Source: Chloroflexota bacterium
GTDB taxonomy: Bacteria; Chloroflexota; Anaerolineae; Anaerolineales; Anaerolineaceae
Direction: 5' to 3'
Assembly: GCA_021372725.1 (NCBI GenBank)
Contig: JAJFTV010000119.1
Location: 119 to 64,118 of the forward strand
Length of the DNA stretch: 64,000 nt
The stretch's first letter is position 1. The number at the start of each line of letters is the position of its first letter. Under the pieces are notes generated by a model. That model was not told the origin of the DNA and ran no database searches. It saw only the letters and a program-made list of their open reading frames with translations. Position numbers and translations under genes: made by a program. Of the stretch, positions 26,870-49,871 are shown piece by piece.

Positions 26870-26967
26870 AAATCCACAGCATTTTGCGAAGTTATCCACA
26901 GTTTTGCACATATATCAACCTGTTTTCCACAAGTTTTTCCAAAATTTGTGGATTCTTTTGTGGATTC
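26870..26967. promoter_or_regulatory. DnaA-box cluster 1
   Basis: Perfect TTATCCACA at 26892-26900. TTTTCCACA at 26923-26931. AAATCCACA at 26870-26878. TGTGGATTC at 26947-26955 and 26959-26967. Confidence 0.65.
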
Positions 26968-27249: not shown

Positions 27250-27426
27250 ATGACATATAAAGTCAACCGCGACGAATGCATCTTATGCGGAGCTTGTGAA
27301 CCCGAATGCCCTGAGCAAGCTATTTCCGAAGTAGATGGTGCGATGTGGATTAATCCCGAACTTTGCAAAGACCACGCTCTTTGCGTTGAAGTTTGCCCGG
27401 TCGAAGCAATTTCCAAGGCTGAGTAA
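27250..27426 (+). CDS. 4Fe-4S ferredoxin (58 aa)
   Basis: Not in the track because it is under 60 aa. MTYKVNRDECILCGACEPECP...CKDHALCVEVCP. AAGGAG 9 nt upstream. Confidence 0.85.
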   Translation: MTYKVNRDECILCGACEPECPEQAISEVDGAMWINPELCKDHALCVEVCPVEAISKAE

Positions 27427-27506: not shown

Positions 27507-28163
27507 ATGAAAAAATTCATCACGGTGGCAGGAAATATTGGCGTTGGCAAATCAACCCTGGTTGAACTGCTGAGCGAGGCATTGGATTGGGTACCTTTTT
27601 ACGAACCGGTAGCCGAAAATCCTTATCTGGTCGATTTTTATGAGAATATGAATGACTGGAGCTTTCACTCACAGATATTCTTCCTCATCCACCGTCTACG
27701 CATTCATCACGAGTTAGCAATGTGCCCAAATTCGGCCATTCAAGATCGCAGTATTTACGAGGATGCCGAAGTCTTTGCCAAGAATTTATACCTTCAGGGA
27801 TATTTTCAGGAACGGGATTACGCCACTTATACCTCCCTGTATCAGACCTTGTGCAAATCCTTAATTGCACCTGACCTGGTTGTGTATTTGCGTGCAACCA
27901 CGCCAACACTGATTACGCGAATAACCAAACGCAGCCGTGATTATGAAAAATCGATCAGCCCTGATTACCTGGATCAAATCAACCATCTCTATGATGAATG
28001 GATCGACGGGTTCACGCTCTGCCCAAAGCTCACCATTCCGGCCGATAATCTTGATTATGTTTCCCAGCCCAGCCACCTAAATCTCATTCTGCGCAAGATA
28101 CAGGAAAGATTATCCGGCAAGGAAGAAGTCGTTTTCGAGCCAGGTGAAATCGAAGCCCTTTAG
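27507..28163 (+). CDS. deoxynucleoside kinase
   Basis: P-loop GNIGVGKST, DRSIYED motif, length and pattern of the dAK/dGK family. Confidence 0.85.
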   Translation: MKKFITVAGNIGVGKSTLVELLSEALDWVPFYEPVAENPYLVDFYENMNDWSFHSQIFFLIHRLRIHHELAMCPNSAIQDRSIYEDAEVFAKNLYLQGYFQERDYATYTSLYQTLCKSLIAPDLVVYLRATTPTLITRITKRSRDYEKSISPDYLDQINHLYDEWIDGFTLCPKLTIPADNLDYVSQPSHLNLILRKIQERLSGKEEVVFEPGEIEAL

Positions 28164-28222
28164 AAAAAGTGACTGATCCCAAAGAAACACATTAAGAATT
28201 TTTTGAGAAAGCCAATATTATG

Positions 28223-28256
28223 AAAATAGGCCAACCCCTTTGGGCCAGCCTATTTT
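28223..28256. terminator. bidirectional terminator between the convergent dNK and spoVS genes
   Basis: AAAATAGGC....GCCTATTTT arms with a CCC/GGG inner stem. A/T runs on both sides. Confidence 0.6.
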
Positions 28257-28278
28257 TAATCCACTGGTGAAATGTTTG

Positions 28279-28569
28279 TTATTTCGGATCAATCACCAGT
28301 TTGATTGCCGTACGAACTTTCCCATCGATCTCTACATCGACAAATTCTGGTACTGCTACAATATATACCCCTTCCTCCTTTAAGTATCCTGTAGCGAGAA
28401 CCATTGCCTTTACAGCTTGATTGACGGCTCCAGCCCCGATAGCCTGAACTTCAGCATGTTTATGTTCACGAATGACCCCAGCAATCGCCCCCGCTACGGC
28501 TGCAGTGCGGGAGTTTGCTTTCACTTTTATGATGTCCACCTTTGCCTCCCTCGACATAAATTCTGACAT
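28279..28569 (-). CDS. spoVS: SpoVS-family protein
   Basis: KVKANSRTAAVAGAIAGVIRE..EVQAIGAGAVNQAVKA...TAIKLVI is near-canonical SpoVS. The start could be Met5 at 28557. Confidence 0.9.
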   Translation of the reverse strand: MSEFMSREAKVDIIKVKANSRTAAVAGAIAGVIREHKHAEVQAIGAGAVNQAVKAMVLATGYLKEEGVYIVAVPEFVDVEIDGKVRTAIKLVIDPK

Positions 28570-28628
28570 TTTGGGGTTGTTTACAATGTGTTTATCATTT
28601 TAATGGATTTGAAAGTCAATTGCAATAC

Positions 28629-28993
28629 CTTTCCACATTATAAATCCAATAATGATTATAGTAACAGTAGTAGAGACTGTGGATATGTGGATAAAAGCAG
28701 TTTGTGGCGATGAATCCGGTATATATAACTGTTTAACTCAATTATCCCCCATATCTAGCGATTTTATCCTTCCAGGTTTTCCAGATGAAATAGGGGGATT
28801 CTTGTGGAAAAAAATCGGTAAAAAACAGCCTTTTAATTACTTTGTGAGAGAATCTTCTATGTGTCCACACTCATAATTCACCCCCTATATAGAGGAGGTG
28901 AAATTACCGTAATTTCAGGTGAATCACACTCAATTTATACCATTTCTCCACAGTTCGATGGGGTTTTCCACAAATATAAGCGGTTTATCCACA
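28629..28993. promoter_or_regulatory. DnaA-box cluster 2 with tandem boxes, TAG-trios and an AT-rich stretch (candidate oriC unwinding module)
   Basis: TGTGGATAT at 28678-28686 and TGTGGATAA at 28686-28694. TGTGGAAAA at 28803-28811. TTCTCCACA at 28944-28952. TTTTCCACA at 28964-28972. Perfect TTATCCACA at 28985-28993. TAG TAA CAG TAG TAG at 28659-28673. Confidence 0.65.
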
Positions 28994-29006
28994 GATTTAA
29001 GCCCAT

Positions 29007-30020
29007 CTACTCCTGGACAATGCCCATATCTTTTGACCAGGCATCAAGCGTTTCATCGATACTATCAAGATATTCATCCAGCCGCTGGATGCGGTCATCC
29101 ATCTGATCCGGGCTCATCCCCATCGTTTCGACCACCGCAGACCATTTATCCTGGATCATCAGGTTATCCGTTGAAACAGATGCTGCCAGGGTCCAGGTTT
29201 TGATGACCGGCCATAATGCAGCGAAGGGATGTTCTTCATTTAGAGCCAGGGTGGCATTTTTATAATAGGACAGGCGATTGATGTCCAATTTGATGGGAGC
29301 TTTTTCAGATTTTGAGGCAGCGATGAATGCTTCCTCCCAGTTTTCCAGCCAGGCAGCGGGTACCCCGGAGAAACCATCCGGGGGCATCAGCAGGTCAATG
29401 AATGCATCGGCCAGCCCAGGATTGCCAATCGCTTCGGCCCTGCCGGGGTACTGCAGCAGGAACCGGCGTTCGGTCATAGGCCTGTTGGTTAATGATGCGA
29501 CGGCATTGGCAGCTTTTTCCATAGCCTTCAGGAATTGATATACTTTTTCAGTGTGGTGTTGGGCAGTACGGTTTTTCAGATCAAACCATAACTGGCGGGA
29601 TGAGGTATAAAAATTACGTGCCCTGTACAGTGTATATTCCGGCCGGCCGTATTGGGCGCAGATACTGGACTGGGTGAATTCGAACCAGTGCTGGGTATCG
29701 TGCAAAATAATGGGATTATTACAGATAAATGGGGACAGCCATGGATCAGAACGCTGTTCCCGCGGCTGGCGAAAATCACTTTGCGCAAAATGGGCAATAT
29801 CCAGGTGAATTTCATCCGAGAGCCTGATAATTTCTCGCGGATGTTCCGGTGTGTTGTCATGGATGAAAAAAAGATCGATATCTGTGGTATGTCCAAGCAA
29901 GGGTTCATCGGTCAGCAGTGACCCGGTCAAGTAAATGCATACCATGCGCCGGTTTTGTCTCAGTTGTTGATCAGCAGCCGTTCGAGCTGCTTGCAGCAAT
30001 GAATCACGAGTTATGCGCAT
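29007..30020 (-). CDS. nucleotidyltransferase-fold (pol-beta superfamily) protein, function unknown
   Basis: GSLLTDEPLLGHTTDIDLFFIHD fits the hG[GS]-x(9-13)-DhD NTase motif. The C-terminal domain is helical. Confidence 0.45.
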   Translation of the reverse strand: MRITRDSLLQAARTAADQQLRQNRRMVCIYLTGSLLTDEPLLGHTTDIDLFFIHDNTPEHPREIIRLSDEIHLDIAHFAQSDFRQPREQRSDPWLSPFICNNPIILHDTQHWFEFTQSSICAQYGRPEYTLYRARNFYTSSRQLWFDLKNRTAQHHTEKVYQFLKAMEKAANAVASLTNRPMTERRFLLQYPGRAEAIGNPGLADAFIDLLMPPDGFSGVPAAWLENWEEAFIAASKSEKAPIKLDINRLSYYKNATLALNEEHPFAALWPVIKTWTLAASVSTDNLMIQDKWSAVVETMGMSPDQMDDRIQRLDEYLDSIDETLDAWSKDMGIVQE

Positions 30021-30080: not shown

Positions 30081-30728
30081 CTACGAAGGTTCATTTGTAT
30101 TGGGTAGTTCCGGCTGAAAAGGTGCCAACTGCAATGCCTGGCGGATACGTGTCTCAATCCAGATCAGGTCTTCTTCATGGCGGACAAAATCCCGCGTGTT
30201 GGTGTCAATCACCAATGTGGGGGAGGGATGTTTTTCATGCAGAAAGTAAGTGTCATACGCTTCGTTGAGCGATTGGATATAATCCCGTTCCATGCTGCGT
30301 TCATAAGAGCGATCGCGCTGTGCAATGCGCTGCATGAGAACATCGGTATCAGCTCGCAGATATACGATGAGGGTGGGGAGAATCGTTTTCTCGGCCAGCG
30401 CTTCCTGCACACGATAGTACATCTCCAGTTCATCACCTTTCAGGTTGATTCTGGCAAACAGGGCGTCTTTTTCAAACGTATAATCGCTGATCAGGGTTTT
30501 ATTTTCTTGCAGCAGTCTTGAGACGCCATGCCGCTGTTGCTGATATCGACTGAGAAGGAAGAAGATTTGTGTTTGAAATGCATATCGTGCACGGTCGGAG
30601 TAAAAATCACCCAGAAAAGGATTTTCCTCAAATACCTCCAACAGTAAACTGGCCTGAAAGGATGGCTGAAGCATCCGTGCCAGGGTGGTCTTGCCGACGC
30701 CAATCACACCTTCGACCGCAAAATACAT
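30081..30728 (-). CDS. deoxynucleoside kinase (second paralog)
   Basis: P-loop GVIGVGKTT. ISDYTFEKD occupies the ERS-motif position. Arg-rich lid QRDRSYE. Confidence 0.8.
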   Translation of the reverse strand: MYFAVEGVIGVGKTTLARMLQPSFQASLLLEVFEENPFLGDFYSDRARYAFQTQIFFLLSRYQQQRHGVSRLLQENKTLISDYTFEKDALFARINLKGDELEMYYRVQEALAEKTILPTLIVYLRADTDVLMQRIAQRDRSYERSMERDYIQSLNEAYDTYFLHEKHPSPTLVIDTNTRDFVRHEEDLIWIETRIRQALQLAPFQPELPNTNEPS

Positions 30729-34257: not shown

Positions 34258-34286
34258 TTGACAAGACTTCTTCCATCGGTTATCCT
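34258..34286 (+). promoter_or_regulatory. promoter of the SRP RNA gene (TTGACA-17-TATCCT)
   Basis: -35 at 34258-34263 and -10 at 34281-34286. This places the TSS about 34292, at the base of the SRP helix. Confidence 0.55.
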
Positions 34287-34290
34287 TAGC

Positions 34291-34403
34291 CCTGCGTCCG
34301 GGTGGGACCGGCGCGGCGGAACCCTGCGAACCCCGTCAGATCCGAGAGGAAGCAGCGGTAAGAAGGTATTTCCGGGCGCCGCCGGCAAACCTACCCGGCG
34401 CAT
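34291..34403 (+). ncRNA. ffs: signal recognition particle RNA, short (4.5S-type) form
   Basis: GUCAGAUCC-GAGA-GGAAGCAGC matches conserved SRP domain IV (E. coli GUCAGGUCC-GGAA-GGAAGCAGC) with a GNRA tetraloop. The long closing helix is TGCG.CCGGGTGGG...CCTACCCGG.CGCA, followed by TTTGT. Confidence 0.8.
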
Positions 34404-34407
34404 TTGT

Positions 34408-35316
34408 ATGAAGATGACTACTCCACCTATTTGCAATTACGAAGACTCCGATTACCAGGATACTTTCTGGGAAGCCGGCGGTCGTGACTATGAAGATGCT
34501 GTGGAAGCGGTTGCCATAAACCGGCTGATGCCTCGATCCGGCAGCCGCCTGCTCGAACTGGGCGCAGGCGCCGGACGCAATTCTTCCCGTTATCGCGGTT
34601 TTCAACAGGTGACATTGCTCGATTACTCACATAGCCAGTTGGAACGCGCTCGTGACCGCCTGCGCTGCACCCAGGACCCCGGGAATGAATACCGTTTTGT
34701 GGCTGCCGACATCTACCGACTGCCGTTTGCTCCAGGTGTATTTGATGCCGCGACCATGATCCGTACACTGCATCACCTCAGCGAACCGGTCAGCGCCCTT
34801 CTGCAGGTTCGGCGTGTACTTCAACCGGAAGCTGTTTTCATCCTCGAATATGCCAACAAGCACAATCTGAAATCGATTTTGCGCTATCTGTTCCGCCTCC
34901 AGAAATGGAGCCCCTTCACCCGCGAACCGGTTGAGTTTGTGAAATTGAATTACGATTTTCATCCGGCGGCAGTTCGGTCGTGGCTGGATGAAGCGGGCTT
35001 TGTACTGGAGCGACAGCTTACGGTTTCTCATTTCCGAATTGGATTGTTCAAAAAAGTGCTGCCCCTTAAATTGCTGGTTTGGATGGATTCAACTGCCCAG
35101 CTAACCGGTGATTGGTGGCAGATGTCACCCAGCGTATTTACCCGCAGCCATACCACACAAGACGGTGCCCCTGCTGCGAAAGTTGCCTTTTTTGCCTGCC
35201 CGGCTTGTGGTGAACCGCTGGCGGATACCCCGCCCCTGATTATATGTCCGGCTTGCGGGAAGCAGTACCCGGTGGAAGACTGTATTTATGATTTCCGATT
35301 GACGCAGAATTCTTGA
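34408..35316 (+). CDS. class I SAM-dependent methyltransferase with C-terminal zinc ribbon
   Basis: LLELGAGAGRN motif I. C-terminal CPACGEPL...CPACGKQYPVEDCIYDF (Trm112-like). The first 50 codons of the track ORF overlap the ffs promoter and RNA. Confidence 0.75.
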   Translation: MKMTTPPICNYEDSDYQDTFWEAGGRDYEDAVEAVAINRLMPRSGSRLLELGAGAGRNSSRYRGFQQVTLLDYSHSQLERARDRLRCTQDPGNEYRFVAADIYRLPFAPGVFDAATMIRTLHHLSEPVSALLQVRRVLQPEAVFILEYANKHNLKSILRYLFRLQKWSPFTREPVEFVKLNYDFHPAAVRSWLDEAGFVLERQLTVSHFRIGLFKKVLPLKLLVWMDSTAQLTGDWWQMSPSVFTRSHTTQDGAPAAKVAFFACPACGEPLADTPPLIICPACGKQYPVEDCIYDFRLTQNS

Positions 35317-48518: not shown

Positions 48519-49871
48519 TTAATGATTTTGAGAATTTCGCTGTTCTTCGTATGCCCTTACTGCCAGCCCGGCAGTGACACTGCTGAATGTATTGGTGTTG
48601 ATCACCCGTTCTTTGCCGAATATACGCTCGAGCATCTGTGAGAAATAAGGGATGTTCGATGAACCGCCGGTCTTGATGGCCGCATCGATATCAACTGCAT
48701 CCAGGCCGGATCGTTCGATGGTTTGCATCAGACAGTCATGGATTTTGTCGGCCGGTTCCTCGATATCCTGGTCAAATCGCCAGCGGGTCAGCAGTTCCCA
48801 AATGTGGATATCGTTCTCTTCCATTCGAAACAGGCTTGCGCTTTCACTGGAAAGCCGGATTTTGGCTGCCTCCACCTTATTATAGAATGAAAACGCCAGG
48901 TCATTATAGATGATGGATTCCAGGGCCTTCAATCTGGCAGGCACATCGCAGGTTTTCATCGTGCGCTGCAGCATGGTACGTACCGGGGGGGTACTTAACT
49001 CTGGCAGGACTTCCCACTCTGAAAGAGCGTCGATCAAACTTTCAATGCGCGGGTCGTCCGGAAAATGACCTTTACCGAAGTGTTCCAGCATTTGCTTCTG
49101 GATGATAATGTGATCGAAGTCGCTGCCCGCAATGCCAATACCGCCGGTGGCGTATACCAGGCGGTTGCCGGGATCGCCCAGGCGCATAATGGTAATATCC
49201 AGCGTTCCGCCGCCAAAATCAAAGATCAACACATTTTGGGGTTTCTCGATGGTGGTCTCATAATACAGGGCGGCTGCGATTGGCTCATATTCAAAGGATA
49301 CCTCCTCAAAACCGGCTTGAAGGGCAGCCCGTTTGAGGGTTTCCTGTGATTGCTGATCCAAAATCGGGTCATCGAAGAAGTGAACCGGCCTGCCCAACGT
49401 GACACCGGTTATTTTCTCTCCCAGGATCGCCTCCGATCGGGCTTTCAGTTCTACCAGATAGATGCCGATGATCTGTTCCAGGCTGTAAAACCGGTCAAAA
49501 ACACGGGTTCCCTTGTATCCTTTTGAACGCAAACCGGTCTTGATGTATTGCAGCAAACGACCCGGGGTTAATTCGTCCACTTCCATGTAGAGGTCGCGGA
49601 CATAAAACAATTCGCCGCCCACAAAGTCGGATTCCCCGATCCATTTTTTGACAAACCGGCGCGGCCGGTCGATGTTGTCGCGGTAATAGATGTTGATGGC
49701 TTCCTGGCCGATATAATGCTTGTATTCTCTGGTGATGTACAAGACTGTTTTGATCACACCGGGAGCCGGGCTGTCCTTATCGAGCGGCAAAATATTCAAC
49801 TGCCTGCCATCAAATACCGCTACACCTGAATTCGATGTACCGAAATCAAGCCCTACATGAAGCCCTTTCAT
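48519..49871 (-). CDS. Hsp70-family ATPase without a substrate-binding domain (YegD-like)
   Basis: Actin-fold phosphate and adenosine motifs GLDFGTSNSGVAV, IFDFGGGTLDITI and TGGSSNIPYF. 450 aa, so only the NBD plus a short tail. Confidence 0.8.
   Translation of the reverse strand: MKGLHVGLDFGTSNSGVAVFDGRQLNILPLDKDSPAPGVIKTVLYITREYKHYIGQEAINIYYRDNIDRPRRFVKKWIGESDFVGGELFYVRDLYMEVDELTPGRLLQYIKTGLRSKGYKGTRVFDRFYSLEQIIGIYLVELKARSEAILGEKITGVTLGRPVHFFDDPILDQQSQETLKRAALQAGFEEVSFEYEPIAAALYYETTIEKPQNVLIFDFGGGTLDITIMRLGDPGNRLVYATGGIGIAGSDFDHIIIQKQMLEHFGKGHFPDDPRIESLIDALSEWEVLPELSTPPVRTMLQRTMKTCDVPARLKALESIIYNDLAFSFYNKVEAAKIRLSSESASLFRMEENDIHIWELLTRWRFDQDIEEPADKIHDCLMQTIERSGLDAVDIDAAIKTGGSSNIPYFSQMLERIFGKERVINTNTFSSVTAGLAVRAYEEQRNSQNH

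Follow-up and report, generated by a model that had tools for sequence, protein, structure and literature searches.

The block of DNA described here is, as far as computational prediction can take it, very probably the unwinding module, or basal unwinding system (BUS), within the chromosomal replication origin, oriC, of an Anaerolineaceae bacterium. It lies in the intergenic region between spoVS and a nucleotidyltransferase-like gene in a 64-kb stretch of DNA, referred to below as the window, and our best reading of the region is an oriC that is unlinked to dnaA and yet carries a canonical BUS. The layout is almost exactly that of Bacillus subtilis, and we therefore regard it as a new example of a known device, not as a new kind of element. 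What is new is modest: a strong, canonical, dnaA-unlinked origin for the Anaerolineaceae, naturally occurring 3'-GCT-5' trios, and changes in spacing that are restricted to helical turns.

Sequence anatomy of the predicted unwinding module

Read on the minus strand from 28694 to 28659, the window gives TTATCCACA / TATCCACA / GTCT / CTA CTA CTG TTA CTA, and continues beyond the trios, toward 28598, as TAATCATTATTGGATTTATAATGTGGAAAGG... (Table 1). An initial annotation of this DNA had described two abutting DnaA boxes, a spacer and five in-phase trinucleotides at these positions, and on re-reading the window we found the boxes, spacer, trios and coordinates to be exact to the base. The upstream member of the abutting pair is the better match to the consensus; the downstream member, when taken as a 9-mer (ATATCCACA), has one mismatch and overlaps its neighbour by 1 nt. 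The pair also registers as a direct repeat (D3), in which TGTGGATA occurs twice at a spacing of 8. The distance from the upstream box to the first trio is 12 nt, made up of the 8-nt box and GTCT. On the plus strand, which is predicted to be the strand bound by the DnaA filament, the trios read 3'-GAT GAT GAC AAT GAT-5', with a central A in five of five.

The least stable 21-mer within 28540-29030 lies at 28640-28660 (nearest-neighbour dG -19.9 kcal/mol, 86% A+T) and abuts the last trio. The annotation had drawn the A+T-rich stretch more widely, over 28598-28658. That interval is indeed A+T-rich (75%, vs 51% in the window), and its core, at about 28638-28658, resembles an unwinding element; its distal half (28597-28625), however, is the spoVS promoter, with a -35 of TTGCAA (28625-28620), a 17-nt spacer and a -10 of TAAAAT (28602-28597). 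In relatives this promoter takes the form TTGnnn-17-TACAAT, often with an upstream TG, and its distance from the first trio ranges from +48 to +463 nt, so that it is an element separate from the BUS. The A+T core of the window is short (~21 bp) because the spoVS promoter begins 48 nt past the first trio.

Departure from chance was gauged with 1000 dinucleotide-preserving shuffles of the window, which were searched for a BUS-like pattern consisting of a box with at most one mismatch, an abutting box with at most two, a gap of 3-5 nt and five in-phase NTN triplets. This pattern, observed once in the window, arose in 2 of the 1000 shuffles (mean 0.002), and an abutting box pair in 11. Six or more boxes within 320 bp were encountered in none of the 1000 shuffles, the maximum being 4. 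Across the whole window, 33 DnaA boxes with at most one mismatch were counted, as against 15 +/- 3.8 expected.

Table 1. Features of the predicted origin and its neighbourhood (positions in the window).
Feature	Position	Strand	Description
Deoxynucleoside kinase gene	27507..28163	+	Pfam scan
spoVS	28279..28569	-	Pfam PF04232, E = 1.4e-32
Intergenic region, predicted chromosomal oriC	28570..29006	.	437 bp, 65% A+T
spoVS promoter, not part of BUS	28597..28625	-	sigma-70-type, conserved in relatives
Inverted weak DnaA-box-like site	28629..28637	+	CTTTCCACA, 2 mismatches
A+T-rich core, predicted unwinding element	28638..28658	.	low duplex stability
Five in-phase DnaA-trios	28659..28673	+	TAGTAACAGTAGTAG = 5'-TAG TAA CAG TAG TAG-3'
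BUS spacer	28674..28677	-	GTCT (plus AGAC), 4 nt
Downstream co-oriented BUS DnaA box	28678..28685	-	TATCCACA, plus-strand TGTGGATA, 8-nt form
Upstream BUS DnaA box	28686..28694	-	TTATCCACA, plus-strand TGTGGATAA, 0 mismatches to consensus
Middle DnaA box	28803..28811	-	TTTTCCACA, co-oriented with BUS boxes, 117 bp upstream of them
Three-box DnaA array	28944..28993	+	TTCTCCACA, TTTTCCACA, TTATCCACA; opposite orientation to BUS boxes
Nucleotidyltransferase-like gene, 337 aa	29007..30020	-	synteny anchor
Deoxynucleoside kinase gene	30081..30728	-	Pfam scan

Comparison with known origins

The BUS of B. subtilis oriC (incC) reportedly comprises boxes 6 and 7, a GC-rich gap, trios and an A+T-rich 27-mer. 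In strain 168 it reads 3'-AATAGGTGT/TTAGGTGT/CCGG/GATGATAATGAAGATGAT-5', the upstream box lying 12 nt from the first trio (Pelliciari 2021, PMC8287927, supplementary tables); the top strand is TTATCCACA AATCCACA GGCC CTA CTA TTA CTT CTA CTA, and the scaffold oligonucleotides carry ACTTATCCACAAATCCACAGGCCC and then TACTATTACTTCTACTA (PMC8287927). On the same footing, the window reads 3'-AATAGGTGT/ATAGGTGT/CAGA/GAT GAT GAC AAT GAT-5'. Alignment to a known unwinding region, a check that the initial annotation had itself proposed, thus sets side by side two modules with the same parts, strand relations and 12-nt spacing, in which 29 of 36 bases are identical over the boxes, gap and five trios. Common to the two are a consensus upstream box (28686-28694, the counterpart of box 6), an abutting 8-nt co-oriented second box (28678-28685, the counterpart of box 7, which is TTAGGTGT read 3'->5'), a 4-nt gap, trios on the strand complementary to TTATCCACA, two proximal trios that are 3'-GAT-5', and an A+T tract after them. 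They differ in the number of trios (five in the window, six or more in B. subtilis), in the length of the A+T tract (~21 bp as opposed to a 27-mer) and in what follows that tract, namely the spoVS promoter in the window and dnaN in B. subtilis. The gap, GC-rich in B. subtilis, is 50% GC in the window (GTCT) and GCCC in its relatives. Moreover, the origin in the window is without flanking dnaA/dnaN, unlike that of B. subtilis.

Published rules for recognizing a BUS (PMC8287927) call for a box with at most two mismatches to TTATCCACA, no more than 16 bp between the better box and the first trio, with a peak at 10-13, and at least three consecutive in-phase 3'-NAN-5' trios on the complement of TTATCCACA, 3' of the boxes, 3'-GAT-5' being preferred proximally. 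A second co-oriented box within 0-3 bp, the upstream of the two being the better match, is found in 57% of predicted BUS and is not obligatory, while the average gap is 4 bp (PMC8287927). The window presents the box, the second box, the box-trio distance, three or more trios and the distal A+T tract. The module conforms to all of the published search rules, and the orientation of trios relative to boxes, as the annotation had given it, is correct, in agreement with the published B. subtilis BUS and scaffold oligonucleotides (PMC8287927).

The second box ATAGGTGT and 3'-GAC-5' trios also occur among the listed Geobacter and Deinococcus entries (PMC8287927). The BUS entry (predicted or tested) for Geobacter sulfurreducens, read 3'->5' as AATAGGGGT/ATAGGTGT/CGGG/GATGACAAAGATGAC, has both in common with the window, and that of Deinococcus radiodurans reads ...GATGATGACGATGATGAC (PMC8287927). 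The origins of these two species adjoin dnaA/dnaN (~1.5-1.9 kb, in genomes numbered from dnaA), whereas that of the window does not. Escherichia coli oriC (R1 box, 13-mer unwinding element) resembles the window in its two opposed DnaA-box arrays and in predicted unwinding at one edge, beside a high-affinity box; it departs from it in having a single proximal box, a 10-nt spacer and weak trios, TAGGATTAT (PMC8287927), and also has 13-mer repeats, IHF and GATC sites.

The Chloroflexi entries retrieved from a DoriC-based survey (Dehalococcoides, Roseiflexus, Herpetosiphon, Chloroflexus, Thermomicrobium, Caldilinea and Anaerolinea thermophila) are weak candidates, with scores of 3-10 vs 25 for B. 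subtilis (PMC8287927). Anaerolinea thermophila, the sole Anaerolineae genome among these retrieved entries, is represented by a candidate at genome position ~420-460 with a two-mismatch box, a 16-nt spacer and a score of 7 (PMC8287927). Literature searches found no paper on an Anaerolineae oriC.

Conservation within the Anaerolineaceae

Eighty related loci of 9 kb each, all Anaerolineaceae, were gathered via an alignment of the 337-aa protein encoded next to the intergenic region. Conservation of the block among relatives, on which the initial annotation had proposed that its reading should stand or fall, was evident in this collection: the window and 55 of the 80 loci each have a single match to the strict BUS pattern. 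It is found ~280-560 nt past the stop codon of the nucleotidyltransferase-like gene, on the same strand, in 53 of these 55, the exceptions being L041, where it lies ~2.2 kb past the stop, and L046, where the match is on the opposite strand. With a looser anchor, a BUS was recovered in 45 of 46 syntenic intergenic regions; the origin architecture is conserved in the 46 syntenic loci, and within the intergenic region it is the unwinding-specific module that is conserved best. Bellilinea caldifistulae, Levilinea saccharolytica, Ornatilinea apprima and Anaerolinea thermolimosa, relatives available in culture, have the module too (L010, L025, L043 and L053), and in OY969938.1 the locus is at 2.611-2.620 Mb.

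Alignment of 56 origins, which are related by descent, gave the consensus TTaTCCACA tATCC(A/C)CA GcCC CTA CTA nkA nTA CkA, in which the anchor itself fixes the boxes (at most two mismatches each), trio 1 and the outer bases of trio 2. The spacer of the relatives is thus GcCC. Conservation follows a 3-nt period over exactly five triplets, the third base being A in 47/56, 48/56 and 46/56 at the triplets left free by the search pattern. Past the five triplets it collapses, leaving a tract that is A+T-rich (81% in relatives at +20..+30 from the first trio), poorly conserved in sequence and nearly G-free on the CTA strand. Top-strand G is present in 0-6 of the 56 origins per column at +15..+33, but in 19/56 and 30/56 at the centres of trios 3 and 5, and trios 3-5 of the relatives often break the strict 3'-NAN-5' rule, top-strand CGA corresponding to 3'-GCT-5'. 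Of 168 unconstrained cells, 142 have A or C as the central trio base when read on the DnaA-binding strand. Cryo-EM and biochemistry show that the central adenine can be exchanged for cytosine, though not for guanine or thymine, since Asn187 recognizes the exocyclic amine (PMC10721633), and the A/C preference seen in the aligned origins fits this result.

The weak inverted box CTTTCCACA borders the A+T core at its trio-distal edge and closely precedes the spoVS -35. Within +24..+80 of the 56 origins, the best inverted-box match averaged 2.71 mismatches, vs 3.40 +/- 0.09 in shuffled sequences, and a match with at most two mismatches was found there in 22 of the 56.

Other elements of the intergenic region

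Ten DnaA-box-like sites with at most two mismatches are found in the intergenic region (28570-29006); six of them have at most one, and these span 316 bp. The opposed three-box array has spacings of 20 and 21 bp (repeats D1/D2) and is present in 42 of the 45 syntenic origins examined. In relatives, the middle box lies 97, 105-108, 117-119 or 128 bp from the BUS box, while the distance from the third box of the opposed array to the BUS box clusters near 240, 249, 260 and 270 bp. These distances are quantised in steps of ~10.5 bp, so that insertions and deletions come as whole helical turns. Such phasing would be expected if the boxes must share a helix face in one nucleoprotein complex.

Two further symmetrical elements were observed in the region. 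In at least 27 of the 46 syntenic origins a palindrome, CCCCC-ATATAT-GGGGG, recurs at a constant position ~215 nt before the first trio, with the opposed box array on one side and the middle box on the other; its counterpart in the window, TTCACCCCCTATA/TAGAGGAGGTGAA at 28877-28902, is degenerate and 85% complementary. We know of no bacterial factor for such a site. Adjoining it in the window, at 28899-28917, is a perfect 9-nt inverted repeat, TGAAATTAC-G-GTAATTTCA, the core of which, AAATTAnnnTAATTT, is common only to the three closest relatives (L001, L077 and L002). A reading of the region as non-coding RNA was dropped because neither an Rfam nor a tRNA scan detected an RNA gene in 28100-29100.

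Gene neighbourhood

The spoVS and nucleotidyltransferase-like genes sit between the origin and two deoxynucleoside kinase genes, in an order that is conserved across the Anaerolineaceae loci (L001-L080): kinase, nucleotidyltransferase-like gene, intergenic region, spoVS and reversed kinase form an arrangement widespread among them. The two kinases that bracket the origin are paralogous and ~31-37% identical to each other. The 337-aa protein beside oriC has no Pfam family match and is named a nucleotidyltransferase by some sources. It has more than 1400 homologues, nearly all of them Anaerolineaceae-type metagenome sequences; 44 columns are invariant in a 27-sequence alignment, among which G33-S34 and D47-I48-D49 resemble the nucleotidyltransferase motif. 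A look-up of its exact sequence in public assemblies yielded no match; at the protein level, an exact match came from a Chloroflexi metagenome-assembled genome. A protein search seeded with the A. thermolimosa homologue returned no Anaerolinea thermophila copy among the 120 matches listed.

Among the 30 long ORFs (at least 215 aa) of the window that were scanned against Pfam, none has a DnaA or DnaN domain. The gene-neighbourhood cue that usually points to an origin is therefore missing, and a further box cluster may exist next to dnaA. The position of the predicted origin, amid nucleotide-salvage genes and away from dnaA/dnaN, is unusual. The window nevertheless contains chromosomal housekeeping genes, encoding a RecN-like SMC protein, PcrA/UvrD, RNase J, SRP RNA and tRNA-Lys.

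A second cluster of DnaA boxes was noted at 26870-26967, 1.7 kb from the origin; downstream of it come a small ORF for a 4Fe-4S ferredoxin-like protein (27250-27426) and the deoxynucleoside kinase gene at 27507-28163. The cluster comprises AAATCCACA, TTATCCACA, TTTTCCACA and TTTTCCAAA, followed by two inverted copies of TGTGGATTC. Counterparts occur at ~7634-7729 in L001 and L077 and at ~6636-6997 in L058, L068, L069 and L073; at this spot, four relatives have 6-9 boxes with at most one mismatch, nearly all in one orientation, and many other relatives lack the cluster. Its role may be to place dNTP salvage under a DnaA-regulated promoter, to titrate DnaA or to form the other half of a bipartite origin.

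Elsewhere in the window, the small SRP RNA (Rfam RF00169, 55.5 bits) lies at 34300-34399 (+), inside the 5' end of a 352-aa ORF with a TTG start (34258-35316, +) whose methyltransferase domains cover residues 87-251; the true start of the methyltransferase gene is probably downstream of the SRP RNA. Between 46843 and 51058 (-), two long ORFs of 547 aa and 396 aa without a Pfam match flank an Hsp70/actin-fold ORF (48519-49871), and G+C is lower, at about 41-44%, around them at 46-49 kb.

Strand composition

Strand composition was evaluated over the 64-kb window and the 9-kb loci. The cumulative G-C minimum of the window falls at 29151, 145 bp beyond the intergenic region, in a broad trough (~22-37 kb), and GC skew changes from -0.044 on the left to +0.016 on the right. 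When the 50 loci with full flanks were oriented alike, mean GC skew was -0.037 in the outer left flank (negative in 37) and +0.012 in the outer right flank (positive in 32). The difference, right minus left, is positive in 40 of the 50 (Wilcoxon p = 1.5e-8), a comparison confounded by common descent and by a partial overlap in flanking genes; the flank polarity in relatives is that expected of an origin, albeit in a form weakened by this confounding.

Alternative explanations

Proximity to spoVS, which starts 90 nt downstream of the trios, raises the question of whether the block is instead a DnaA operator joined to a promoter for that gene, with the boxes over a -35-like TCCACA, the trios as the 17-nt spacer and TATAAT (28660-28655) as the -10, so that DnaA would act only as a transcription factor. 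A consensus scan does give TCCACA-17-TATAAT, on the minus strand at 28683..28655, a score of 10/12, which is above that of the spoVS promoter match described earlier. However, conservation of this sigma-70-like candidate already breaks down in the closest relatives, since L001, L077 and L002 keep the boxes and trios but lack the TATAAT; we accordingly rejected it, which removes the trios as a promoter spacer. It is a different promoter, TTGnnn-17-TACAAT, that is conserved before spoVS, and its variable distance from the trios leaves no fixed operator-promoter geometry. The module is, furthermore, kept at loci where no spoVS was detected downstream (e.g. L019, L025, L028 and L035), and a promoter spacer would not give conservation with a 3-nt period. 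We consider an operator function of this kind highly improbable.

Somewhat less remote, although still unlikely, is the view that the region is a conserved DnaA-box cluster other than the active origin: it might titrate DnaA, serve regulation or be a secondary or relic origin, and replication would then start elsewhere, perhaps near dnaA. Such a view could draw on the failure to find dnaA/dnaN among the 30 scanned ORFs, on the second box cluster 1.7 kb away and on the entry retrieved from the DoriC-based survey, which puts the origin of A. thermophila at ~420-460 (PMC8287927). As retrieved, however, the last of these is a weak candidate (score 7 vs 25 for B. subtilis). Non-origin clusters, such as E. 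coli datA/DARS and the DnaA-box clusters of B. subtilis, do resemble the region in being intergenic and in containing several high-affinity boxes. They are not known to have a module of box pair, gap, phased trios and A+T tract or a skew switch, whereas here nothing in the region is better conserved than the unwinding-specific part and skew polarity switches both in the window and in 40 of 50 relatives. Finally, chance resemblance within an A+T-rich intergenic region might be suspected, given that the published search rule (a box, a spacer of at most 16 nt and three NAN triplets) is permissive and matches 85% of predicted origins (PMC8287927). The rarity of the fuller pattern and of the six-box cluster in shuffled sequence (2 and 0 of 1000, respectively), together with the recurrence of the module in 55 related genomes, as a single copy per locus at a constant position and on one strand (L041 and L046 excepted), effectively refutes this explanation.

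Proposed mechanism and significance

Taking the block as the BUS of a chromosomal oriC, DnaA binding, filament formation, opening and origin firing may be envisaged by analogy with B. subtilis. DnaA would dock on the double-stranded DNA of the two co-oriented boxes (28678-28694). From this anchor, ATP-DnaA protomers would extend along the plus strand as a continuous right-handed oligomer, one protomer per trio from 28673 to 28659, each capturing the first two bases of its trio. The adjacent tract of low stability, ~28638-28658, would then open, and helicase would load there, while the phased co-oriented box and the opposed three-box array would supply further DnaA and build the rest of the initiation complex.

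A broader reading, in which a dnaA-unlinked origin within a conserved gene order combines a textbook BUS with lineage-specific modules, is possible, although taken jointly its elements leave us more doubtful than convinced. The gene order would be deoxynucleoside kinase, nucleotidyltransferase-like gene, oriC, spoVS, ferredoxin and deoxynucleoside kinase. The CCCCC-ATATAT-GGGGG palindrome is possibly a regulator site, the inverted weak box would close the unwinding element and, in some lineages, a second large DnaA-box cluster would precede the ferredoxin/deoxynucleoside-kinase operon. If this is true, the second cluster could link initiation with dNTP salvage or give the origin two parts, and the 3'-GCT-5' trios would amount to in vivo evidence that what DnaA recognizes in the central base is the exocyclic amine and not adenine itself.

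The near-identity of the module in Firmicutes and Chloroflexota provides comparative support for an ancient BUS. The alignment of 56 origins serves as a natural mutagenesis series, in which exchange of A and C at the centre of the trio is tolerated and spacing shifts by whole helical turns only. For the Anaerolineaceae, a large and mostly uncultured family, the prediction supplies an origin and an unwinding site at base-level resolution, and the locus can anchor analyses of Anaerolineaceae MAGs, from genome rotation to estimates of growth rate from coverage.
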